A stretch of 48,574 nt of DNA from a virus (IMGVR_UViG_2734482555_000011), one strand, 5' to 3'. Counted from the stretch's first letter, positions 1 through 48,574 are shown. The notes: generated from the sequence alone by a model not told the origin. Translations and numbers: made by a program.

Positions 1-1236
1 CTACGATAACCGCGCATTCAACATGGCTACCTGTTCGTCGTTCATGTCATCAATCCACATACCGTAAATTTCATACACCATCTGCGCAGTTTCATGCCCC
101 ATCTGGCTGGCTATAAACGCCGGGTTCGCTCCTGCCGTCAACAGCCAGCAGGCAAAAGTATGCCGCGTATGGTACGGATTACGGCGGCGAATACCAGCAC
201 GTTTTACTGCTGCATTCCATCTCGCACCCAAACTGCTTACCGAGTAATAAGGTTTCTGTTTTCCGTTACACACTCTGGGCATGAAAACAAAATGCAGTTT
301 TTGCTTTTCGGTTCTGCCGTACTCCCGATGATAAAAAGTGATTTCGCTTTTGCGATGATGCCCGGTCAGTTTGTATTGCTCCTTCAGTGCTTCAAGAGCA
401 GGCTGCAGTAGTGTTACCGTCCGGATCCCCGCATTTGTTTTTGGGGGACCGAACATATCCAGTATCGTCAGGTTTCTTCTGACATTCACAACTCCCTTCT
501 CGAAATCCACATCCTCCCACGCCAGAGCAGCCAGTTCCCCGTGACGAAGCCCGGAGTATACGGCAAATTTCCACAAGTTCTGGCTCTGTCCTTTTTCACT
601 TTCCATTAATGCATTGAATTCTGTTTTAGATAACGGGTCAGGCTTTATTCTGTTTCTCTGTAATTTCTTTACTCCTTCAAATGGTTTGGTTGATATAAAT
701 CCCGACTGATACGCAAAACGTAACAACGAACAGAGCAGGGCGATATAGTTATCAACTGTGCGCACGGTTCTTCCTTTTTTGTTGGATCTTGGATTATCCA
801 GGTAAAGCGTTTCTCCATGCAGCAGTTCATTCCGGTAGTTTAAGATATCGCTATAACGAATATGCGATATCGGAGTACTCTCACAAATTATTATCCTGAG
901 TGTTTTTAATTGTGATTTCGTTTTCTTCATTGTGTTTGTTGTTAACTCTGTTTCTTTAATTTTTGTCCAGATATCACAAAGCTCCCCGAACGTTTTTATG
1001 ACCCTCGTTGTCACCATTTTTGCCCCAGTGCTGGACTGGGGAAAACGTCTTAAATACTCAAACTCACCGGAATTGATTTCATGAACTATCAACGCTCTTA
1101 AATTCCCGGCTTTTTTAATGTTACTGTTAGTAACCTCCCAGCCTTTCAATGTTTCCCGACATCGTTTTCCTCGAAACATGAACCAGATGCGAATGTATTT
1201 ACCTCGAATCTCGACACCTGTTGGTAATTTAGACAT
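1..1236 (-). CDS. intR: Tyrosine integrase, Rac IntR-type
   Basis: Complete 411-aa minus-strand ORF (start 1236, stop codon at 1-3). Length and N-terminus MSKLPTGVEIRGKYIRIWF match my recollection of K-12 Rac IntR; HTRHTFA box near the C-terminus is typical of tyrosine recombinases. Confidence 0.9.
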   Translation of the reverse strand: MSKLPTGVEIRGKYIRIWFMFRGKRCRETLKGWEVTNSNIKKAGNLRALIVHEINSGEFEYLRRFPQSSTGAKMVTTRVIKTFGELCDIWTKIKETELTTNTMKKTKSQLKTLRIIICESTPISHIRYSDILNYRNELLHGETLYLDNPRSNKKGRTVRTVDNYIALLCSLLRFAYQSGFISTKPFEGVKKLQRNRIKPDPLSKTEFNALMESEKGQSQNLWKFAVYSGLRHGELAALAWEDVDFEKGVVNVRRNLTILDMFGPPKTNAGIRTVTLLQPALEALKEQYKLTGHHRKSEITFYHREYGRTEKQKLHFVFMPRVCNGKQKPYYSVSSLGARWNAAVKRAGIRRRNPYHTRHTFACWLLTAGANPAFIASQMGHETAQMVYEIYGMWIDDMNDEQVAMLNARLS

Positions 1237-1552: not shown

Positions 1553-1753
1553 TCACGAGGACTGAAGTTTCTCGCAATTAAAATTTATCAGTTTTACTTT
1601 CTGCTCTCTGGAAACGCCTGCTTCTTTTTTACCTGAGAGCATTTTTTCGCATTCTGATTTCGTTAGTTTAGATTTTGAATATCTTGTCCAGTTAGTAGGA
1701 GTGCCACCTTCCTTTTCAATAGTGGCGGTAATTTTATACATGAACACCTCCAT
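1553..1753 (-). CDS. ydaC: YdaC-like small protein
   Basis: Track ORF 1553..1813 (MVEV...MEVFMYKITATIEKEGG...). Position between xis and ralR as in K-12 Rac. Start uncertain: ATG at 1753 or ATG at 1741 preceded by GGAGG. Confidence 0.55.
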   Translation of the reverse strand: MEVFMYKITATIEKEGGTPTNWTRYSKSKLTKSECEKMLSGKKEAGVSREQKVKLINFNCEKLQSS

Positions 1754-16308: not shown

Positions 16309-16598
16309 TGGTGAATTTACGTAAAGCGGCTAAAGGCCAGATGTGCCAGATCAGAATCCCTGGCTACTGCAATCACAATCCCGAAACCTCTGTGCTGGCG
16401 CATTACAGGCTGGCGGGGACGTGCGGAACAGCGACAAAACCACATGATATGCAGGCGGCGATAGCCTGTAGCTCATGCCACGATCTAATCGACGGGCGGG
16501 TAAAAACCAGCGATTACACCAAAGAAGAATTGCGCCTGATGCATGCTGAAGGGGTTTTTCGCACACAAGAAATCTGGAGAAAGAAAGGTCATTTATGA
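16308..16598 (+). CDS. YbcO-like protein (putative nuclease, DUF1364-type)
   Basis: 96-aa ORF with cysteine/histidine pattern CQIRIPGYCN...ACSSCHD, resembling DLP12 YbcO as recalled. ATGA overlaps on both sides. Confidence 0.65.
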   Translation: MVNLRKAAKGQMCQIRIPGYCNHNPETSVLAHYRLAGTCGTATKPHDMQAAIACSSCHDLIDGRVKTSDYTKEELRLMHAEGVFRTQEIWRKKGHL

Positions 16599-17137
16599 TT
16601 TACCCAACGAATACAGGAAAAAGCGGAGAACACCTTCGCCTCACCACGCTGGAAAGTGTCTGGATTCAGGGAAAACTACGTATGTGGGGGCGCTGGTCGT
16701 ATATTGGCGGTGGCAGGTCAGGGAATATGTTCAATCAGTTGTTGGCATCCAAAAAACTGACGAAAACAGCCATTAATGAAGCCCTGCGCAGAATGAAAAA
16801 AGCGGGAATAGAGAAAGCTGAGCTGGAAGCGTTTTTGCGAGAGATGATCAACGGCAAGCAAAAGAGCTGGCTGGCGCATTGTACTGATGCAGAGGCGTTA
16901 TGTATTGATCGAGTCATAAGTGAGGTGCTGGCAGAGCATCCAGGATTGATTTGCATTCTCCGGCAACGCTATGAAGGGCGGGGGATGACTAAGCGCAAAA
17001 TGGCTGAATTGCTAAATGATGCACACCCAGAGTGGTGTTTTAGCACATGCGAAAAACGGATTGCTAATTGGTTAGCTGTTGCTGAGTATGCCCTATATAT
17101 TCCCATGCGTGAATCATTTGCTGAGAAAATGGCTTGA
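16595..17137 (+). CDS. Late-gene antiterminator Q (probably phage-21/82 type)
   Basis: 180-aa ORF at the Q position: last gene before intrinsic terminators and a phage-21-type lysis cassette. Assigned by position and size, not a verified alignment. Confidence 0.55.
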   Translation: MIYPTNTGKSGEHLRLTTLESVWIQGKLRMWGRWSYIGGGRSGNMFNQLLASKKLTKTAINEALRRMKKAGIEKAELEAFLREMINGKQKSWLAHCTDAEALCIDRVISEVLAEHPGLICILRQRYEGRGMTKRKMAELLNDAHPEWCFSTCEKRIANWLAVAEYALYIPMRESFAEKMA

Positions 17138-17244: not shown

Positions 17245-17564
17245 ACGTCAGGAAAGCAGGGGAGAATGCTGCTAGTTGGGCAACTGGTCTTTCTGCTCCA
17301 AATTATAACAGAGACCAGTTATAGTTTCGGTGCTGTGTTTTTTTTACAATATTGTGATAACACATTGCTGGCGGGAGTTTTGATATTTCTTGGCAGGGGC
17401 TGATGATGCGTTATCCTGATGTCGTCAACTCATATAAAATGAGATGAGAGATCATTGCAGGGTGGTTTGTAATTCGCTGTTTAGCGGGACAATATGTTGT
17501 CTGATACAAGACACCCGACGCCTCAGATTACTATAATAAAGACGAAGCATCCTTTGTATTGACC

Positions 17565-17590
17565 AACCGCCTGTTTAGGCGGTTCTTTTT
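17565..17590 (+). terminator. Second intrinsic terminator (tR'-like candidate)
   Basis: AACCGCCT / GTTT loop / AGGCGGTT followed by CTTTTT. Confidence 0.5.
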
Positions 17591-18122
17591 GGGCTGGTTT
17601 ATTGTATGCCAAATGATTATTAAAAAGGTTGTGTTAATAACAAGATCCGAAATAATATGCCTGCATATTTTTATCTTGCTTATATTCTGCATATTGTGCA
17701 TAGCAGGCTCATCCCTGCAATCAAAACTGTATGATGAGTATTTTTTGTTTTCCTTTTTTCCAGTCATCTGATGATGACCTGCTTCTTTTTAATCCGGATC
17801 GACATCAGTTTTTTAAGATAATTCCTGCGAGTTATATGCATAAATGCCACAAACTCCGCATTTTATGTGGTTGGGAGTTGCCGGGCGCGCAGTGAGTTTG
17901 CTAAGAAAACTCCTGCATGGTGAATCCCCCTGTGCGGTGGGGTGATACCATTAACCTTTTCTGTCGCCGACAGGTATCACGAACATTTTGTTCACCGGGA
18001 GGCACCCGGCACCATGCACTTCAATAGATTCTCTCCACATTATGGATATTCTTTCAGAATATCCCACGCAGACTTTGTGTAAATGTTAACAAATGTGCGT
18101 TTTATTTGATCTGATTCGCTGT

Positions 18123-18152
18123 TTGAGCGTCCAAAACAACGGTATATATAAT
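18123..18152 (+). promoter_or_regulatory. Sigma70-like promoter for lipoprotein gene 1
   Basis: TTGAGC (18123-18128), 18-nt spacer, TATAAT (18147-18152); GAGGA then ATG at 18182 about 30 nt downstream. Confidence 0.5.
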
Positions 18153-18181
18153 CCTTTACTATATGACATATGTGAGGAAAA

Positions 18182-18610
18182 ATGGGTTTTCGTAGCGCAT
18201 CAATTCTTACGTTGATTATTAGTGGGATTATTATCGGGTGCACTGATGCTGTATCGACAAATTATCATGACCGTACATCATATTACTCCGATAAAGCAAT
18301 AGAGACACAGTATGTGAGTTCATCTGAACGTACTTCTGATGTTAGTGAGGATATCCGTCTGTATGCCCATCAAATCAAGAGCGCCATCGAAAAACAGTTC
18401 GGGGATGCGAGTAAGTATTCAGGAAAAGAGTGTACACTGAGAATGCATATGGCCCCGAATGGCCTTCTACTGGAGGTTAAAAGAGAAAGTGGAGACCTCG
18501 ATTTATGTCGTGAAGCGATGAATGCGATAAAGAATGCTGATATACCTGCCCCCCCTTCGCCGGAAGTATATAAAGTATTTCAAAATGGGGTGCTGGATTT
18601 TAAACCCTGA
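18182..18610 (+). CDS. Lipoprotein with TolA domain-III-like C-terminus
   Basis: 142 aa; signal peptide with lipobox IIGC then T at +2. C-terminal YAHQIKSAIEKQFGDASKYSGKECTLRMHMAPNGLLLEVKRESGDLDLCREAMNAIKNADIPAPPSPEVYKVFQNGVLDFKP closely resembles the TolA C-terminal domain as I recall it. Confidence 0.7.
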   Translation: MGFRSASILTLIISGIIIGCTDAVSTNYHDRTSYYSDKAIETQYVSSSERTSDVSEDIRLYAHQIKSAIEKQFGDASKYSGKECTLRMHMAPNGLLLEVKRESGDLDLCREAMNAIKNADIPAPPSPEVYKVFQNGVLDFKP

Positions 18611-18760
18611 TATTTATTGTTTTGTAATAAACGGTTTCGGCTTAGGTTTGTTCTGACACAGCTACGGCACTGAGCTAAATTTAGCGGATAGTCAGCTCTG
18701 AGCCAGTGGCGGACGTAACAACTACTATTGCTGAGATTTTAATGGATTGAGGAGCAAGAA

Positions 18761-19156
18761 GTGGGATTAAAGAAAATCGTTATGTTGACTTTTTGGGTCG
18801 GTTTTGTTGCGGGATGCACACCTTTACACCCTTCAGATTGCCACAAAACTACTGCTACAGGTAGTTGCAGTTCAGGACGCTGGGATGATCAGGATGAATG
18901 GGGGGCGCAAGCGCGGGGAATCAGAGCTGCAATTAATGCCAAACTTGATGAGCCGCATAACTGGAAAGGGAAAAAATGCAGGTTGCATATGGAATTCTCT
19001 CAGGATGGCACGGCGTTAAAAATATCTACCAGTAACGGTGATAAAGCCTATTGCGAAGCGATAAAGTCCGCAGCTCATAAAGCCAAATTTCCGGCCTTCA
19101 ACAATCCGGAAGTCTACAGAGATTTTCAGAAATCTGGCTTTGACATGCGAGGTTAG
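18761..19156 (+). CDS. Second lipoprotein with diverged TolA domain-III-like C-terminus
   Basis: 131 aa, GTG start after GAGGAG; lipobox VAGC then T at +2. C-terminal ...KKCRLHMEFSQDGTALKISTSNGDKAYCEAIKSAAHKAKFPAFNNPEVYRDFQKSGFDM shares the spacing pattern of gene 1 and TolA-III. Confidence 0.6.
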   Translation: MGLKKIVMLTFWVGFVAGCTPLHPSDCHKTTATGSCSSGRWDDQDEWGAQARGIRAAINAKLDEPHNWKGKKCRLHMEFSQDGTALKISTSNGDKAYCEAIKSAAHKAKFPAFNNPEVYRDFQKSGFDMRG

Positions 19157-19407
19157 CTCTTCAATTACTATATCTCATTCATAGCAAACTGACAGATTTG
19201 ATGATGTTCTATATACGAAACCTGTGATGTCAAGTCTGAGCTAATACAAATAAACATAATATCAGAGAAATACATTTTATTAGCTCGCTACGGCGAGCTT
19301 TTTATATTGCATCGTCTCCAGCATATATATCAATTAAGGCTCTGATTGATGTGTCTGAAAGCCTACACATAATAACTATGCCATCCGTTCCGTGCGGAGG
19401 TGAGGCT

Positions 19408-19623
19408 ATGAAATCCATGGACAAAATTTCAACAGGCATTGCCTACGGCACCTCCGCAGGCAGTGCTGGCTACTGGTTTTTACAGTTGCTCGATAGAGTA
19501 ACTCCGTCACAGTGGGCTGCAATCGGTGTGCTGGGTAGTCTGGTATTTGGCCTGCTGACGTACCTGACAAACCTTTATTTCAAGATTAAAGAAGATAAGC
19601 GCAAGGCTGCGAGAGGTGAATAA
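19408..19623 (+). CDS. Holin, phage-21 S-type pinholin
   Basis: Track ORF 19351..19623; start [29 protein letters not shown]... (71 aa) with dual-start motif M-K-S-M and GGAGGTGAGG upstream; matches S21/EssD as recalled. Confidence 0.85.
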
Positions 19624-20074: not shown

Positions 20075-20295
20075 NNNNNNNNNNNNNNNNNNNNNNNNNN
20101 NNNNNNNNNNNNNNNNNNNNNNNNNNNNNNNNNNNNNNNNNNNNNNNNNNNNNNNNNNNNNNNNNNNNNNNNNNNNNNNNNNNNNNNNNNNNNNNNNNNN
20201 NNNNNNNNNNNNNNNNNNNNNNNNNNNNNNNNNNNNNNNNNNNNNNNNNNNNNNNNNNNNNNNNNNNNNNNNNNNNNNNNNNNNNNNNNNNNNNN
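20075..20295. other. Run of N (221 nt), masked or unsequenced
   Basis: Literal n characters; covers the endolysin 3' end and the Rz 5' end. Confidence 1.
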
Positions 20296-20566: not shown

Positions 20567-20703
20567 AATCTTAACTACAATATGATTCATTTTGATGATT
20601 GTTTCATAAGGAACAGTGAAGTAAGATCTAAGAGGAGTTAAATTTTATACAGTATAATCATAATATTGCAGCAAGGTGGTTATAATTGAAAGAATATTTA
20701 GAT

Positions 20704-22161
20704 ATGAATACATCTCATGTAAGAGTTGTTACTCATATGTGTGGGTTCCTGGTTTGGCTCTATAGTCTTTCAATGTTGCCACCAATGGTTGTAGCATTGT
20801 TTTATAAAGAAAAAAGCCTGTTCGTTTTCTTTATAACTTTCGTTATATTTTTTTGCATTGGTGGCGGAGCGTGGTATACAACTAAGAAATCTGGCATTCA
20901 ATTACGTACCCGTGATGGGTTTATTATAATTGTAATGTTTTGGATTTTGTTTTCTGTTATTAGTGCATTCCCTTTATGGATTGACTCAGAACTTAATTTA
21001 ACGTTCATTGATGCTCTGTTTGAAGGGGTTTCTGGAATAACAACAACAGGAGCAACTGTAATTGATGATGTTAGTTCATTACCTCGGGCATATTTGTACT
21101 ATCGGTCACAGTTAAATTTTATAGGTGGTTTAGGAGTTATTGTTCTGGCGGTTGCAGTATTGCCATTATTGGGTATTGGTGGTGCAAAGCTTTATCAGTC
21201 AGAAATGCCGGGGCCATTTAAGGATGACAAACTCACTCCCCGCCTGGCCGATACGTCACGGACACTGTGGATAACTTATTCTTTATTAGGTATTGCTTGT
21301 ATTGTCTGTTATAGACTTGCAGGAATGCCTTTGTTTGATGCTATTTGTCACGGGATTTCCACAGTTTCGCTTGGTGGTTTCTCAACTCATAGCGAGAGTA
21401 TCGGATATTTTAATAACTATTTGGTTGAGCTGGTGGCTGGTTCTTTTTCCCTGCTATCGGCTTTCAACTTCACTCTTTGGTATATTGTTATTAGCAGAAA
21501 AACGATAAAACCTTTAATCAGAGATATTGAACTTCGTTTCTTTCTGTTAATAGCCTTAGGGGTGATCATTGTTACCTCTTTCCAGGTCTGGCATATAGGT
21601 ATGTATGACTTGCATGGAAGTTTTATTCATTCGTTTTTTCTTGCCAGCTCCATGCTCACTGATAATGGTTTAGCTACGCAGGATTATGCAAACTGGCCCA
21701 CGCACACGATAGTGTTTTTGCTGTTGTCAAGTTTCTTTGGGGGATGTATAGGTTCAACCTGTGGTGGAATTAAGTCACTTCGATTTCTTATACTTTTCAA
21801 ACAAAGCAAACACGAGATAAATCAGCTTTCTCATCCCAGAGCGTTGTTGAGTGTAAATGTAGGAGGGAAGATAGTTACAGATCGTGTAATGAGGTCTGTA
21901 TGGAGTTTCTTTTTTCTTTATACTCTCTTCACGGTGTTTTTTATACTGGTGTTAAATGGTATGGGATATGATTTTCTTACATCATTTGCAACAGTGGCTG
22001 CATGTATTAATAATATGGGATTAGGTTTTGGGGCTACTGCATCGTCATTCGGAGTGCTTAATGACATTGCAAAATATTTAATGTGCATAGCTATGATTCT
22101 TGGTCGCCTTGAAATTTATCCTGTTATTATATTGTTTTCAGGTTTTTTTTGGCGCTCCTAA
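20704..22161 (+). CDS. trkG: TrkG potassium uptake protein (Rac moron)
   Basis: Track ORF 20686..22161; start MNTSHVRVVTHMCGFLVWLYSL... gives 485 aa, matching recalled K-12 TrkG; polytopic membrane protein, AT-rich. Confidence 0.9.
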   Translation: MNTSHVRVVTHMCGFLVWLYSLSMLPPMVVALFYKEKSLFVFFITFVIFFCIGGGAWYTTKKSGIQLRTRDGFIIIVMFWILFSVISAFPLWIDSELNLTFIDALFEGVSGITTTGATVIDDVSSLPRAYLYYRSQLNFIGGLGVIVLAVAVLPLLGIGGAKLYQSEMPGPFKDDKLTPRLADTSRTLWITYSLLGIACIVCYRLAGMPLFDAICHGISTVSLGGFSTHSESIGYFNNYLVELVAGSFSLLSAFNFTLWYIVISRKTIKPLIRDIELRFFLLIALGVIIVTSFQVWHIGMYDLHGSFIHSFFLASSMLTDNGLATQDYANWPTHTIVFLLLSSFFGGCIGSTCGGIKSLRFLILFKQSKHEINQLSHPRALLSVNVGGKIVTDRVMRSVWSFFFLYTLFTVFFILVLNGMGYDFLTSFATVAACINNMGLGFGATASSFGVLNDIAKYLMCIAMILGRLEIYPVIILFSGFFWRS

Positions 22162-39086: not shown

Positions 39087-39336
39087 NNNNNNNNNNNNNN
39101 NNNNNNNNNNNNNNNNNNNNNNNNNNNNNNNNNNNNNNNNNNNNNNNNNNNNNNNNNNNNNNNNNNNNNNNNNNNNNNNNNNNNNNNNNNNNNNNNNNNN
39201 NNNNNNNNNNNNNNNNNNNNNNNNNNNNNNNNNNNNNNNNNNNNNNNNNNNNNNNNNNNNNNNNNNNNNNNNNNNNNNNNNNNNNNNNNNNNNNNNNNNN
39301 NNNNNNNNNNNNNNNNNNNNNNNNNNNNNNNNNNNN
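39087..39336. other. Run of N (250 nt), masked or unsequenced
   Basis: Literal n characters across the L/K junction. Confidence 1.
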
Positions 39337-40559: not shown

Positions 40560-43500
40560 ATGGGTAAAGGCAGCAGTAAGGGGCATACCCCGCGCGAAGC
40601 GAAGGACAACCTGAAGTCCACGCAGCTGCTGAGTGTGATCGATGCCATCAGCGAAGGGCCGGTTGAAGGTCCGGTGGATGGATTAAAAAGCGTGCTGCTG
40701 AACAGTACGCCGGTGCTGGACAATGAGGGGAATACCAACATCTCCGGCGTCACGGTGGTGTTCCGGGCAGGTGAGCAGGAGCAGTCACCGCCGGAGGGAT
40801 TTGAATCCTCCGGCTCCGAGACGGTGCTGGGTACGGAAGTGAAATATGACACGCCGATCACCCGGACCATCACGTCGGCAAACATTGACCGACTGCGTTT
40901 TACCTTCGGTGTACAGGCACTGGTGGAAACCACCTCAAAGGGAGACAGGAATCCGTCTGAAGTTCGCCTGCTGGTTCAGATACAGCGTAACGGTGGCTGG
41001 GTGACGGAAAAAGACATCACCATTAAGGGCAAAACCACCTCGCAGTATCTGGTCTCGGTGGTGGTGGATAACCTGCCTCCGCGCCCGTTCAGTATCCGGA
41101 TGCGCAGGATGACACCGGACAGCACCACAGACCAGCTGCAGAACAAAACGCTCTGGTCGTCATACACCGAAATCATCGATGTGAAACAGTGCTACCCGAA
41201 CACTGCACTGGTCGGCGTACAGGTGGACTCGGAGCAGTTCGGCAGCCAGCAGGTGAGTCGTAATTATCATCTTCGCGGGCGCATTCTGCAGGTGCCGTCG
41301 AACTATAACCCGCAGACGCGACAATACAGCGGTATCTGGGACGGAACGTTAAAACCAGCATACAGCAACAACATGGCCTGGTGTCTGTGGGATATGCTGA
41401 CCCACCCGCGCTACGGCATGGGGAAACGTCTTGGTGCGGCGGATGTGGACAAATGGGCGCTGTATGTCATCGGCCAGTACTGCGACCAGNNNNNNNNNNN
41501 NNNNNNNNNNNNNNNNNNNNNNNNNNNNNNNNNNNNNNNNNNNNNNNNNNNNNNNNNNNNNNNNNNNNNNNNNNNNNNNNNNNNNNNNNNNNNNNNNNNN
41601 NNNNNNNNNNNNNNNNNNNNNNNNNNNNNNNNNNNNNNNNNNNNNNNNNNNNNNNNNNNNNNNNNNNNNNNNNNNNNNNNNNNNNNNNNNNNNNNNNNNN
41701 NNNNNNNNNNNNNNNNNNNNNNNNNNNNNNNNNNNNNNNNNNNNNNNNNNNNNNNNNNNNNNNNNNNNNNNNNNNNNNNNNNNNNNNNNNNNNNNNNNNN
41801 NNNNNNNNNNNNNNNNNNNTTGACCCGGATAACGGCTGGGAGACGGCGACAGAGCTTGTGGAGGATACGCAGGCCATTGCCCGTTACGGTCGTAACGTCA
41901 CGAAGATGGATGCTTTTGGCTGTACCAGCCGGGGGCAGGCACACCGCGCCGGGCTGTGGCTGATTAAAACAGAACTGCTGGAAACGCAGACCGTGGACTT
42001 CAGCGTGGGCGCAGAAGGGCTTCGCCATGTGCCGGGCGATGTCATTGAAATCTGTGATGATGACTATGCGGGTATCAGCATCGGCGGGCGCGTGCTGGCG
42101 GTAAACAGCCAGACCCGGACGCTGACGCTCGACCGTGAAATCACGCTGCCATCCTCCGGTACCATGCTGATAAGCCTGGTTGACGGAAGTGGCAATCCGG
42201 TCAGCGTGGAGGTTCAGTCCGTCACCGACGGCGTGAAGGTGAAAGTGAGCCGTGTTCCTGACGGCGTTGCTGAATACAGCGTGTGGGGGCTGAAGCTGCC
42301 GACGTTGCGCCAGCGCCTGTTCCGCTGTGTGNNNNNNNNNNNNNNNNNNNNNNNNNNNNNNNNNNNNNNNNNNNNNNNNNNNNNNNNNNNNNNNNNNNNN
42401 NNNNNNNNNNNNNNNNNNNNNNNNNNNNNNNNNNNNNNNNNNNNNNNNNNNNNNNNNNNNNNNNNNNNNNNNNNNNNNNNNNNNNNNNNNNNNNNNNNNN
42501 NNNNNNNNNNNNNNNNNNNNNNNNNNNNNNNNNNNNNNNNNNNNNNNNNNNNNNNNNNNNNNNNNNNNNNNNNNNNNNNNNNNNNNNNNNNNNNNNNNNN
42601 NNNNNNNNNNNNNNNNNNNNNNNNNNNNNNNNNNNNNNNNNNGCTGACAGTCCGGGCGGTAAATGCCTGGGGACAGCAGGGCGATCCGGCGTCGGTATCG
42701 TTCAGGATTGCCGCACCGGTAGCACCGTCGCGGATTGAGCTGACGCCGGGCTATTTTCAGATAACTGCCACGCCGCATCTTGCGGTTTATGATCCGACGG
42801 TACAGTTTGAGTTCTGGTTCTCGGAAACGCGGATTACCGATATCAGGCAGGTTGAAACCACAGCCCGCTACCTTGGCGCGGGGCTGTACTGGATAGCCGC
42901 CAGTATCAATATCAAACCGGGCCATGATTATTACTTTTATATCCGCAGTGTGAACACCGTTGGCAAATCGGCATTCGTGGAGGCCGTCGGTCGGGCGAGC
43001 GATGATGCGGAAGGTTACCTGGATTTTTTCAAAGGCAAGATAACCGAATCCCATCTCGGTAAAGAGCTGCTGGAAAAAGTTGATCTGACGGAGGATAACG
43101 CCAGCAGACTGGATGAGTTTTCGAAAGAGTGGAAGGACGCTAACGATAAATGGAATGCGATGTGGGGCGTCAAAATTGAGCAGACCAAAGACGGCAAACA
43201 TTATGTCGCGGGTATTGGCCTCAGCATGGAGGACACGGAGGAAGGCAAGCTGAGCCAGTTTCTGGTTGCCGCCAATCGTATCGCGTTTATTGACCCGGCA
43301 AACGGGAATGAAACGCCGATGTTTGTGGCGCAGGGCAACCAGATATTCATGAATGACGTGTTCCTGAAGCGCCTGACAGCCCCCGCCATTACCAGCGGTG
43401 GCAGTCCTCCGGTATTTTCCCTGACATCAGACGGAAAGCTGACCGCTAAAAATGCGGATATCAGTGGTAGTGTGAATGCGAACTCAGGAACGCTCAACAA

Positions 43501-44060: not shown

Positions 44061-44867
44061 ATGCGTAAAGTTTGTGCCGCCATTTTGTCCGCAGCCATTT
44101 GTCTGGCCGTATCCGGTGCGCCTGCATGGGCGTCTGAACATCAGTCCACGCTGAGCGCGGGGTATCTTCATGCCCGGACCAACGTTCCCGGCAGTGATGA
44201 TCTGAACGGGATTAACGTGAAATACCGTTATGAGTTTACGGATACGCTGGGGCTGGTGACGTCATTCAGCTATGCAGGAGACAAGAATCGCCAGCTGACC
44301 CGTTACAGCGATACCCGCTGGCATGAAGATTCCGTGCGTAACCGCTGGTTCAGCGTGATGGCGGGGCCGTCTGTGCGCGTGAATGAATGGTTCAGCGCGT
44401 ATGCGATGGCGGGTGTGGCTTACAGCCGTGTGTCGACTTTCTCCGGGGATTATCTCCGCGTAACTGACAACAAGGGGAAAACGCACGACGTGCTGACCGG
44501 AAGTGATGACGGTCGCCACAGCAACACGTCTCTGGCGTGGGGAGCTGGCGTGCAGTTTAACCCGACCGAATCCGTGGCCATTGATATTGCTTATGAAGGC
44601 NNNNNNNNNNNNNNNNNNNNNNNNNNNNNNNNNNNNNNNNNNNNNNNNNNNNNNNNNNNNNNNNNNNNNNNNNNNNNNNNNNNNNNNNNNNNNNNNNNNN
44701 NNNNNNNNNNNNNNNNNNNNNNNNNNNNNNNNNNNNNNNNNNNNNNNNNNNNNNNNNNNNNNNNNNNNNNNNNNNNNNNNNNNNNNNNNNNNNNNNNNNN
44801 NNNNNNNNNNNNNNNNNNNNNNNNNNNNNNNNNNNNNNNNNNNNNNNNNNTCGGTTATAAATTCTGA
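44061..44867 (+). CDS. lom: Lom-like outer membrane protein (Ail/Lom family), with internal N run
   Basis: Signal peptide MRKVCAAILSAAICLAVSGAPAWA, then beta-barrel-like sequence resembling lambda Lom as recalled; C-terminus ...GYKF after the N block. Confidence 0.75.
   Translation: MRKVCAAILSAAICLAVSGAPAWASEHQSTLSAGYLHARTNVPGSDDLNGINVKYRYEFTDTLGLVTSFSYAGDKNRQLTRYSDTRWHEDSVRNRWFSVMAGPSVRVNEWFSAYAMAGVAYSRVSTFSGDYLRVTDNKGKTHDVLTGSDDGRHSNTSLAWGAGVQFNPTESVAIDIAYEGXXXXXXXXXXXXXXXXXXXXXXXXXXXXXXXXXXXXXXXXXXXXXXXXXXXXXXXXXXXXXXXXXXXXXXXXXXXXXXXXXXXXGYKF
44601..44850. other. Run of N (250 nt), masked or unsequenced
   Basis: Literal n characters inside lom. Confidence 1.
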
Positions 44868-47856: not shown

Positions 47857-48106
47857 NNNNNNNNNNNNNNNNNNNNNNNNNNNNNNNNNNNNNNNNNNNN
47901 NNNNNNNNNNNNNNNNNNNNNNNNNNNNNNNNNNNNNNNNNNNNNNNNNNNNNNNNNNNNNNNNNNNNNNNNNNNNNNNNNNNNNNNNNNNNNNNNNNNN
48001 NNNNNNNNNNNNNNNNNNNNNNNNNNNNNNNNNNNNNNNNNNNNNNNNNNNNNNNNNNNNNNNNNNNNNNNNNNNNNNNNNNNNNNNNNNNNNNNNNNNN
48101 NNNNNN
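47857..48106. other. Run of N (250 nt), masked or unsequenced
   Basis: Literal n characters across the stf/tfa junction. Confidence 1.
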
Positions 48107-48574
48107 CCTGCAAACAGTACCGATATTGCACCGCCAGATATTCCGGCTGGTTTCGTGGCTGTTTTCAACAGTGATGAGTCATCGTGGCATCTCGTTGAAG
48201 ATCATCGGGGTAAAACGGTTTATGACGTGGCTTCCGGCGACGCGTTATTTATTTCTGAACTCGGCTCATTACCGGAAAATGTCACCTGGTTATCCCCGGA
48301 AGGGGAGTTTCAGAAGTGGAACGGCACAGCCTGGGTGAAGGATACGGAAGCAGAAAAACTGTTCCGGATCCGGGAGGCGGAAGAAACAAAAAACAGCCTG
48401 ATGCAGGTAGCCAGTGAGCATATAGCGCCGCTTCAGGATGCTGTGGATCTGGAGATCGCAACGGAGAAAGAAACCTTGTTGCTGGAAGCTTGGAAAAAGT
48501 ATCGGGTGTTGCTGAACCGTGTTGATACATCAACTGCACCGGATATTGAATGGCCAGTAGCACCTATAGGGTAA
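48107..48574 (+). CDS. tfa: Tail fibre assembly protein Tfa, 5' end lost in N run
   Basis: Frame after the N block reads [53 protein letters not shown]...[12 protein letters not shown], matching TfaR/TfaQ-type proteins as recalled, whose N-terminus would lie in the N block. Stop at 48572-48574. Confidence 0.8.

Follow-up and report, generated by a model that had tools for sequence, protein, structure and literature searches.

Tandem lipoproteins with a TolA domain III-like fold in the Q-S slot of an Escherichia coli prophage: candidate decoys for colicins and filamentous phages

Introduction

Free copies of the C-terminal domains of TolA (domain III, or TolAIII) and TonB act as dominant-negative constructs that confer colicin tolerance and block the entry of Ff phages; free periplasmic TolA domain III, in particular, was reportedly found to do both in the work of Levengood-Freyermuth et al. 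1993 and of Click & Webster 1997. The Q-S interval of lambdoid phages, in turn, is known as a site of lysogenic-conversion morons, e.g. the stx genes. Here, we describe two tandem genes, referred to as open reading frames 1 and 2 (ORF1 and ORF2), that occupy this interval in IMGVR_UViG_2734482555_000011, a 48,574-nt stretch of viral DNA (hereafter the window) that constitutes a complete, intact Rac/mEp460-type prophage of Escherichia coli. Each encodes a lipoprotein signal peptide, a short N-terminal segment and a domain with the predicted fold of TolAIII. We propose, with confidence that stands at about even, that the two proteins are outer-membrane-tethered decoys intercepting the translocation domains of TolA-binding colicins and the gene 3 protein (g3p) of filamentous phages.

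TolAIII offers two strand edges to its ligands. The beta3 strand (A415-K420; backbone NH of D418 and K420) is extended by beta-strand addition of the TolB N-terminus, the N1 domain of g3p (g3p-N1) or colicin N (ColN), and a proline at either D418 or K420 abolishes the binding of all three (PMC4339652). Colicin A (ColA) adds to beta2 (L375-P380) and makes cation-pi contacts with K368, K379 and K396 (PMC3365938), and PDB entry 2x9a shows the g3p of phage If1 bound to TolAIII. TolAIII is bound by ColN at 1 µM and by TolB at 40 µM, i.e. ~40-fold more tightly by ColN (PMC4339652), with a range of 40-200 µM given for the TolB-TolAIII pair (PMC4339652, PMC7391070). Placing the invader's domain rather than the host's in the periplasm is also effective: cells that contain periplasmic pIII-N1 resist colicin A, and their uptake of fd is reduced by 4 logs (PMC10424213).

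Our literature search for phage- or plasmid-encoded TolAIII lipoproteins, decoys or mimics, or for their function, found no publication. Likewise, paralogues, decoys and prophage copies go unmentioned in a 2020 review of the Tol-Pal system (PMC7391070), and the sole mention found is a brief remark in a survey of Klebsiella bacteriocins, where 'TolA and TolB family proteins' are noted on a cloacin plasmid (PMC10269471).

Two lipoproteins with the fold of TolA domain III

Both genes lie on the plus strand. ORF1 (18182..18610) starts with ATG and encodes 142 aa, whereas ORF2 (18761..19156) starts with GTG and encodes 131 aa. A Shine-Dalgarno sequence can be read upstream of each, GAGGA (18174..18178) for ORF1 and GAGGAG (18749..18754) for ORF2, the latter 6 nt from the GTG. 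Lipoprotein signals were judged by a PROSITE PS51257-type rule that combines a charged n-region, an uncharged h-region and the lipobox [LIVMFWSTAG]2-[LIVMFYSTAGCQ]-[AGS]-C. ORF1 and ORF2 both satisfy this rule, having Lys or Arg within the first seven residues and Thr at position +2. The signal peptide of ORF1 (18182..18241), MGFRSASILTLIISGIIIGC followed by T, ends in the lipobox GIIIGC with Cys20 as the lipidation site, while that of ORF2 (18761..18817), MGLKKIVMLTFWVGFVAGC followed by T, ends in FVAGC with Cys19 and is conserved across the ORF2 family; the lipobox Cys is invariant in all aligned family members. Because the +2 residue is Thr and not Asp, the predicted destination of both proteins is the outer membrane.

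In ORF1, the signal peptide is followed by a Ser/Thr/Tyr-rich tether of ~34 aa (residues 21-54; 18242..18343) that is predicted to be disordered, with residues 22-52 of the AlphaFold2 (AF2) model showing a predicted local distance difference test score (pLDDT) below 50. The remainder of either protein, residues 55-142 of ORF1 (18344..18610 with the stop codon) and 45-131 of ORF2 (18893..19156 with the stop codon), is assigned to TolA domain III on the joint basis of Pfam family PF06519, alignment to TolA and the AF2 models. Against the PF06519 gathering cutoff of 25 bits, ORF1 scores 82.6 bits (E=2.4e-23) and ORF2 54.6 bits (E=1.3e-14). In phmmer searches of PDB chains, residues 55-142 of ORF1 align without gaps to residues 334-421 of E. 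coli TolA at 59% identity (E ~1e-27 over PDB chains, 5e-28 for PDB TolA), and residues 51-129 of ORF2 align to TolAIII, again without gaps, at ~31% identity (E ~5e-9). Both domains are modelled at pLDDT >90, and in both models the predicted secondary structure follows the order of the PF06519 fold, i.e. a helix, a short helix, two strands, two helices and a C-terminal strand. Foldseek superposes the ORF1 model on the TolAIII of 2x9a_B and 1tol with a root mean square deviation (rmsd) of 0.6-0.7 Å (0.6 Å for 2x9a_B, at a target-normalised template modelling (TM) score of 0.94) and the ORF2 model on 3qdp at 1.1 Å (target-normalised TM score 0.92), with TonB C-terminal domains showing up only among the distant matches. 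A disulfide is predicted in each domain from Cys pairs in invariant alignment columns, namely C84/C109 of ORF1, the equivalents of TolA C363/C388, and C73/C98 of ORF2.

A first-pass annotation, made from the sequence alone, had placed two lipoprotein genes with a non-Asp +2 residue at exactly these coordinates and had likened the C terminus of ORF1 to that of TolA, citing QIKSAIE, GK.CTLR, a PNG-LLL turn, a conserved Cys and the ending VY.VF....LDFKP. All of these motifs, including both Cys residues, are present, the likeness is borne out by the PF06519 score and the gap-free alignment given above, and the alignment to TolA domain III that had been named as the check turned out significant for both proteins.

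Resemblance to the domain does not make these proteins TolA. In full-length TolA models, the match of ORF1 and ORF2 covers only profile positions 293-386 of 387, so that domains I and II are absent; with NF007065 (cutoff 213 bits), ORF1 reaches 107.8 and ORF2 53.7 bits; and both genes lie outside a tolQRA-tolB-pal operon. By these measures, neither is a TolA. With TIGR02794 (cutoff 59.45 bits), however, ORF2 stays below the cutoff at 47.2 bits and ORF1 exceeds it at 75.6 bits, and ORF1 therefore receives the database name 'TolA' and is treated by the pipeline as a truncated TolA. Both proteins belong to PHROG 5772, which is labelled 'unknown function'.

The consequences of this naming are visible in RefSeq. 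In the identical prophage of strain ECCHD184, the Prokaryotic Genome Annotation Pipeline (PGAP) lists ORF1 (window 18350-18610; locus L001, 20251-20511) as a pseudogene, 'tolA, incomplete, missing N-terminus', and begins ORF2 at the ATG at 18782 (window 18782-19156; L001, 20683-21057), a start that has no Shine-Dalgarno sequence and cuts off the Lys-Lys n-region. Taken at face value, the flag implies that the genes are non-functional remnants, i.e. tolA fragments acquired by the phage, and the TIGR02794 score of ORF1 would agree with a truncated TolA. Yet ORF1 is intact, with its own Shine-Dalgarno sequence, start codon and lipoprotein signal peptide; its alleles, down to 65% identity, are all 142 aa long and all have the lipobox Cys; and PGAP itself annotates other alleles as intact coding sequences under the name 'TolA'. 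Both genes are under purifying selection, the ratio of nonsynonymous to synonymous substitution rates (dN/dS) being well below 1: 0.06-0.12 for ORF2 with 0.06-0.09 for its domain, and 0.09-0.34 for the domain of ORF1 against 0.29-0.78 for its faster-evolving tether. Nor is ORF1 a recent fragment, since a blastn search with it misses E. coli tolA. Given the intact ORFs, the conserved lipobox and dN/dS, we rule out the remnant reading, to which we would in any case attach only a vanishingly small probability. The 142-aa alleles with their lipobox Cys, the dN/dS of 0.09-0.34 and the failure of blastn to reach the host gene mark the pseudogene flag, on this evidence, as an artefact. In practice, RefSeq thereby hides the commonest ORF1 allele as a 'tolA pseudogene' and names others 'TolA', and automated analyses are misled either way, leaving the lipoprotein family out of sight.

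A recent duplication of host tolA was rejected as the origin of ORF1, as blastn with ORF1 detects tolA in 0 of 5,426 E. coli genomes and the identity to TolAIII is only 59%. Among the ORF1 alleles, P0023 is a mosaic whose residues 1 to ~75 are of the P0026 type and whose remainder is identical to the allele of the window, which points to recombination within the gene near the start of the TolAIII domain.

Binding surfaces compared with TolA

The gap-free alignments of both proteins to TolA allow the ligand-binding sites to be mapped residue by residue. The beta3 motif LDFKP is identical in ORF1 and reads FDMRG in ORF2, where an Asp and a basic residue are kept at the positions of D418 and K420. 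In beta2, the LLDIKP of TolA corresponds to LLEVKR in ORF1 and to ALKIST in ORF2, and the ColA-contacting residues K368/K379/K396 are His/Lys/Lys in ORF1 (two of the three lysines kept) and Glu/Ser/His in ORF2 (none kept). Among 18 distant stand-alone lipoproteins, described below, the C-terminal VY.VFKNA.LDFKP is conserved as well.

Retention of beta3 in ORF1 is also the starting point of the main rival explanation, according to which the proteins are modulators of Tol-Pal: a tethered TolAIII would bind its natural partner, the TolB N-terminus, lessen the force-dependent removal of TolB from Pal and loosen the outer membrane, and the payoff could be easier virion release, bacteriocin release from producer plasmids, more outer-membrane vesicles, or induction of Rcs and capsule. 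The edge kept in ORF1 is the one used by TolB, single beta3 mutations that block TolB binding produce the full tol phenotype with a leaky outer membrane (PMC4339652), and modulated TolB interactions could regulate vesicle production, as suggested in a review (PMC7391070). The affinity of TolB (40-200 µM) is so weak, however, that a large excess of the decoy would be required; moreover, the spanins already handle the outer membrane at lysis, whereas a Tol-Pal defect would presumably build up over cell divisions. Overall, we consider it unlikely that tuning of Tol-Pal is what the two genes are for. For interception of invaders, the same affinities are favourable: with ColN binding at 1 µM and TolB at 40 µM, a moderate dose of decoy could trap the invader while Tol-Pal is spared.

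A separate lineage for ORF2

ORF1 and ORF2 share only 28% identity. The first-pass annotation had described ORF2 as a more diverged paralogue, and while the two do belong to the same domain family, ORF2 is not a diverged copy of ORF1: the identity of 28% and the existence of a wide ORF2 family of its own rule out a recent tandem duplication, and the two genes have separate evolutionary histories. The segment between the lipobox and the domain is distinctive as well. Residues 20-44 of ORF2 (18818..18892) contain a Cys pair (C27 and C36, C-x8-C) and a SSGRWDDQDEWG motif and are near-invariant across genera, unlike the variable tether of ORF1. AF2 models this N-terminal part with low confidence (pLDDT <50).

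Large chromosomal contigs of 33 species representatives belonging to about ten genera, namely Enterobacter, Leclercia, Citrobacter, Klebsiella, Raoultella, Kluyvera, Buttiauxella, Yokenella, Pantoea and Rouxiella, carry relatives of ORF2 at 47-89% identity. Conserved synteny was looked for among these chromosomal copies and not found, as their neighbours differ. In addition, ~600 plasmids carry an ORF2 copy that is 87% identical at the nucleotide level. On pO157, the homologue (L002, 7995-8426) lies between the psiB-psiA-hok leading region and toxB, and on IncK2/Z plasmids (L003, 7995-8426; L109, 6995-7426), it follows a nikB-type relaxase gene on the same strand at a distance of 68 nt. We note that the annotated 143-aa start of these plasmid homologues is probably too far upstream, MGVKKIV... 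being the start that matches the phage protein.

The missing ColA-site lysines and the spread of an old family over the Enterobacterales indicate that ORF2 may act differently from ORF1. Taken further, the pair could have split functions, with ORF1 as a TolA-mimic decoy and ORF2 as a captured, old enterobacterial envelope lipoprotein that has its own partner, engaged through the Cys-loop/WDDQDEWG segment and the remodelled TolAIII surface, e.g. for envelope homeostasis or for support of conjugation, and unrelated to the entry of colicins or Ff phages. Such a division would account for the low identity of ORF2 to both ORF1 (28%) and TolAIII (31%), for its lack of ColA-site lysines, for a near-invariant N-terminal segment where the ORF1 tether varies, for a dN/dS of 0.06-0.12, for the relatives on large chromosomal contigs of 33 species representatives in about ten genera and for the IncK2/Z copy 68 nt behind the relaxase gene on the same strand. 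It fits less well with the lack of conserved chromosomal synteny, which implies accessory-gene behaviour on chromosomes, too, with the repeated occurrence of the family on phages and plasmids, and with the Asp and the basic residue that ORF2 keeps at the positions equivalent to D418/K420. We regard split functions as plausible but unlikely, on a par with the Tol-Pal account, and keep to the proposal that both proteins are decoys.

Stand-alone TolA and TonB domains on mobile elements

An exhaustive hidden Markov model search for TolAIII returned 333 cluster representatives. Among the best 150 of these 333, 84 are short (<=175 aa), and 48 of the 84 have an N-terminal lipobox. Eighteen diverse stand-alone lipoproteins share the architecture described here and keep the blocks YAGQIK.AIE, GK.C.LR, GDP.LC and P.PPS..VY.VFKNA.LDFKP throughout. 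The stand-alone domains on bacteriocin plasmids and prophages are 37-60% identical to the ORF1 domain and represent different lineages.

Several of these genes sit next to bacteriocin clusters. On a 10,060-bp ColRNAI plasmid of K. pneumoniae, which encodes a cloacin-like tRNase bacteriocin with its immunity and lysis genes, a divergently oriented operon (L097, 35-768; L100, 1473-2206) encodes a 123-aa TolAIII lipoprotein and a 121-aa TonB_C protein that has a cleavable signal peptide, the stop codon of the former and the start codon of the latter overlapping as ATGA. There are 374 near-identical records of this plasmid, which come almost exclusively from Klebsiella and in many cases from clinical K. 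pneumoniae isolates. A TolAIII lipoprotein gene adjoins the microcin V cluster on a Salmonella plasmid contig, and another adjoins the genes for a pore-forming colicin, its immunity and its lysis protein on an 8-kb Enterobacter plasmid; further stand-alone TolAIII genes are found on a phage-like contig, a Rep3 plasmid and a Serratia island. With respect to Tol-Pal modulation, the proximity of relatives to colicin-lysis modules would favour a role in bacteriocin release, but it is not obvious how the coupled TonB_C protein of the Klebsiella plasmid would contribute to leakiness, and the IncK/Z, pO157 and chromosomal copies are unconnected to lysis. Interception is the reading that fits best with the pairing with a TonB C-terminal domain, with the repeated occurrence on bacteriocin plasmids and with the occurrence on pilus-making plasmids. 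Regarding the last, the IncK2/Z plasmids belong to the I-complex, and the pili of this group are used by the filamentous phage If1.

TonB C-terminal domains have their own phage-borne counterparts. In E. coli lambdoid prophages (EDL933, phage 21, Stx1a phages), a 108-aa TonB_C lipoprotein is encoded directly downstream of the spanin gene. The example from the Rac-like prophage of EDL933 O157:H7 (L108, 20919-21245, minus strand; 108 aa) has the signal peptide MKRNLPLIILLSSLVMGC followed by T and matches Pfam TonB_C with E=5e-15. Its relatives occur in phage 21, Stx1a-converting phages, ev017 and Perceval (15 phage records), and none is present in the window. A proteome table for enterohaemorrhagic E. 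coli (EHEC) gives protein-level values for the EDL933 protein. EDL933_2012, called a TolA-type membrane protein in the text of a paper on EHEC and ciprofloxacin, was discarded as expression evidence, as it is listed as a tail fibre in the table of the same paper (PMC11125564) and is not homologous. Altogether, stand-alone TolAIII lipoproteins form a class of mobile-element cargo that is common, mis-annotated and uncharacterised.

A cargo unit between Q and the holin gene

The prophage in the window begins with intR (1-1236, minus strand), followed by recET, a replication block, the late genes and the tail genes, and the region of interest is 99.9% identical to phage mEp460_ev081. The upstream boundary of the slot is set by a Q-type late antiterminator gene (16595..17137, plus strand; PHROG 753 'anti-termination protein Q-like', E=2e-79; DUF1133 according to PGAP). 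A consensus scan places a PR'-like promoter (AAGACA-18-TATAAT, 17508-17537, plus strand) downstream of it, and two overlapping intrinsic-terminator-like hairpins (17565-17584 and 17580-17596, plus strand) follow after ~30 nt. From its position just 3' of Q, we infer that the stretch 17508-17596 is the late promoter with a short terminated leader (tR') expected for a Q protein of the DUF1133/PHROG 753 type. The scan also yielded an additional terminator-like site at 17763-17778.

Further downstream, ORF1 is preceded by a sigma70-type promoter-like site on the plus strand (18123..18152; TTGAGC, 18-nt spacer, TATAAT) that matches the consensus at 10 of 12 positions. Such matches are not enriched in the region as a whole (2 seen vs 1.15 expected by chance), while the chance expectation for one within the correct 40-nt window and on the correct strand is ~0.008. 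The site is kept, as TGTAAT, in a 93% allele. The spacer between ORF1 and ORF2 measures 150 nt and has no terminator. An intrinsic-terminator-like hairpin and T-run (19282..19309, plus strand; hairpin 19282-19299, a 7-bp stem with 5 GC pairs, then TTTTATATTG) closes the two-gene unit, and a terminator downstream of ORF1 is present in distant ORF1 alleles, too. The holin gene (19408..19623, plus strand; PHROG holin families, E=1e-37; essD in RefSeq) forms the downstream boundary. The order is thus Q, PR'-like promoter, terminators, small RNA (sRNA) gene, ORF1 promoter, ORF1, ORF2, terminator and holin, and both the near-consensus sigma70 promoter and the location between the terminators downstream of Q and the holin gene had been recognised correctly in the first-pass annotation.

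With a promoter-like site and a terminator of its own, a position between conserved phage modules and other cargo at the same slot in a related phage (TerB, DUF3927 and nanS-p in a sister Rac-like prophage of EDL933), the ORF1-ORF2 unit has, as far as its layout tells, the classical arrangement of a moron, i.e. a phage cargo unit, inside the late transcription unit, its own promoter activity being predicted.

The full two-gene unit is present at >=99% identity in 775 of 5,426 complete E. coli genomes (~14%), and any ORF1 allele in 898 of the 5,426. In at least three more lambdoid backgrounds, which have different Q proteins and lack ORF2, the Q-to-holin slot holds a diverged ORF1 allele (66-91% protein identity). 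In all, ORF1 alleles are thus found in the slot in at least four lambdoid backgrounds, twice directly downstream of a tRNA cluster. The position directly after a tRNA cluster is the usual site of stx in the Shiga toxin (Stx) phages. A scan of IMG/VR added 80 near-identical copies of the same prophage and no further diversity.

For Tol-Pal modulation, the layout has two sides. The genes adjoin, on the upstream side, the holin, endolysin and spanin genes of the late operon, as might be expected of factors that ease the release of virions; a chronic tol phenotype, however, would burden the 14% of E. coli in which the pair occurs. A decoy in the lysogen could be served by the promoter-like site in front of ORF1.

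Several features of the window are recorded here as neighbours. The interval from the PR'-type terminators to the ORF1 promoter contains an sRNA of the STnc100 family (17885..18071, plus strand; Rfam RF02076 with 86.6 bits, gathering score 47), which is treated as a neighbour rather than as a proven member of the two-gene unit. The mEp460-like prophage of E. coli K1 strain RS218 encodes sRNA-17, a 193-nt, ArcA-regulated transcript for which no Rfam homologue was reported (PMC7719688); the STnc100-family sRNA at 17885-18071 may be this sRNA-17. A second cargo gene flanks the lysis module on its other side: trkG, for a potassium transporter (20686-22161, plus strand), is located directly downstream of the lysis cassette as in the Rac prophage of K-12, in the slot that holds the TonB_C lipoprotein gene in EDL933. 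Close to its int end, the prophage encodes the RalA antitoxin sRNA (1557-1735, plus strand; 225 bits); an IS009 RNA element (48336-48534, plus strand; 218 bits) is located at the opposite end of the window. ORF calls are unreliable where six runs of N (221-330 nt; 20075-20295, 39087-39336, 41490-41819, 42332-42642, 44601-44850 and 47857-48106) cover portions of the endolysin/spanin region and the tail genes.

Proposed decoys at the port of entry

How might such proteins protect a lysogen? Each lipoprotein would be anchored in the inner face of the outer membrane and present a free TolA C-terminal domain on a short tether. In ORF1, the disordered tether of ~34 residues would hold the domain just beneath the outer membrane, where the translocation domains of colicins and g3p emerge and where TolB-Pal resides. 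The translocation domains of group A colicins and the g3p-N1 of filamentous phages reach the periplasm at the outer membrane and then have to dock, by beta-strand addition, onto the C-terminal domain of inner-membrane TolA, which is coupled to the TolQR motor. A motor-free copy of TolAIII at the port of entry could capture these ligands unproductively, and the lysogen would become tolerant to Tol-dependent bacteriocins, to phages of the Ff/If1 type, or to both. ORF1 would act as a close mimic of the host domain, and ORF2, with a very different surface on the same fold, might extend or shift the set of ligands.

The data presented here establish fold and lipoprotein signal, binding edges that are conserved, purifying selection on both genes, the layout of a moron and the spread over mobile elements, whereas the location at the outer membrane, expression in the lysogen, binding and protection are steps that the proposal would need to hold. 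The first-pass annotation had suggested decoys against Ff phages or colicins, or a perturbation of Tol-Pal, and circumstantial evidence lends such functions some support, namely the retention of beta3 and of two of the three ColA-contacting lysines in ORF1 and the relatives on pilus-encoding conjugative plasmids and on bacteriocin plasmids, once together with a periplasmic TonB C-terminal domain in one operon.

A number of observations weigh against the proposal. Reports of binding, expression or a phenotype for any member of the family were not found in the literature, and a PADLOC scan of the proteins for a known defence system gave no match. The domain occurs in 1 of 50,697 deposited phage genomes, mEp460_ev081 only. 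Conservation of the promoter across distant ORF1 alleles was looked for and not found, their upstream regions being unrelated, and the site is a consensus match only; given the position of the genes in the late unit, their main expression could therefore fall in the phase of lytic growth. A copy of TolAIII should bind the TolB N-terminus, too, and a cost or an effect on Tol-Pal is therefore to be expected. Finally, ORF2 keeps none of the ColA-site lysines and shows an identity to TolAIII of just 31%. Its presence on the chromosomes of many Enterobacterales and the very strong constraint on it fit a physiological role at least as well as that of a decoy in an arms race.

More tentatively, the idea can be extended to the entire class as 'import-hub mimicry', in which phages, conjugative plasmids and small bacteriocin plasmids of the Enterobacterales would widely deploy secreted or tethered decoys of the C-terminal domains of both energy-transducing hubs of the envelope, TolA and TonB, and thereby bind up the epitopes with which arriving bacteriocins and phages engage these hubs. 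It is a similarly speculative step, and one we lean against, to suppose that the resulting immunity is general, requires neither a cognate immunity protein nor loss of the receptor, and extends to ~1/6 of E. coli genomes.

If the decoy proposal is true, the genes would provide a natural, transferable and broad tolerance to Tol-dependent colicins and klebicins and to filamentous phages, a tolerance not covered by the usual explanations, i.e. mutated receptors, mutated tol genes or cognate immunity. Resistance to at least one colicin occurs in >70% of natural E. coli, according to a figure quoted in PMC10269471, and decoys would bear on why this is so. They would also matter for designing bacteriocin- and phage-based therapeutics to be used against E. 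coli and Klebsiella, and for understanding how conjugative plasmids make up for the cost of exposing their pili to male-specific phages. Should the proteins tune Tol-Pal after all, they would be its first natural regulators and would place outer-membrane stability and vesiculation under the control of phages and plasmids.

Comparison with known systems

The closest relative in structure is domain III of E. coli TolA itself (residues ~330-421; 1TOL, 2X9A, 3QDP/3QDR and 1S62), with which ORF1 and ORF2 have the predicted fold (rmsd 0.6-1.1 Å) and the Cys pair in common; in ORF1, helix 1 is near-identical (YA.QIKSAIE) and the LDFKP of beta3 identical. However, TolA possesses an inner-membrane anchor (domain I) and a long helical domain II. 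Both are missing from ORF1 and ORF2, which are therefore not expected to couple to TolQR or to the proton-motive force. In their place, the phage proteins have a lipoprotein signal peptide and a short tether that predict the opposite, outer membrane as their location, and they are encoded by a prophage rather than by the tol-pal operon.

The closest relatives in logic are the laboratory-made periplasmic forms of free TolAIII, of the free TonB C-terminal domain and of the pIII-N1 of Ff phages, in all of which an uncoupled copy of one partner sequesters the other. These hub domains are engineered or belong to the invading phage, whereas ORF1 and ORF2 are natural, predicted to be lipid-anchored, and carried in several lineages by a temperate double-stranded DNA phage and by plasmids. 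Nature has produced the same plan elsewhere, as the stand-alone TolAIII and TonB_C proteins of bacteriocin plasmids and lambdoid prophages likewise combine a signal peptide or lipobox, a tether and the C-terminal domain of an import hub.

Among phage proteins that protect the carrier cell, Llp of T5 and Cor of phi80, N15 and HK022 are also small outer-membrane lipoproteins that interfere with an entry route, and Llp is described as binding FhuA from the periplasmic side. Llp and Cor have no relation to ORF1 and ORF2 in sequence or fold, and they plug an outer-membrane receptor; ORF1 and ORF2, by contrast, would mimic a periplasmic energy-transducing hub and titrate the invader. With the classical Q-S morons such as stxAB, finally, the two genes share the slot downstream of Q and PR', in some cases after a tRNA cluster, as well as a promoter-like site of their own and an expected late read-through. 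The cargo of the Stx phages, however, is a toxin against the animal host, while that of the prophage described here is an envelope protein which, if it is indeed a decoy, would be aimed at the competitors of the bacterium.

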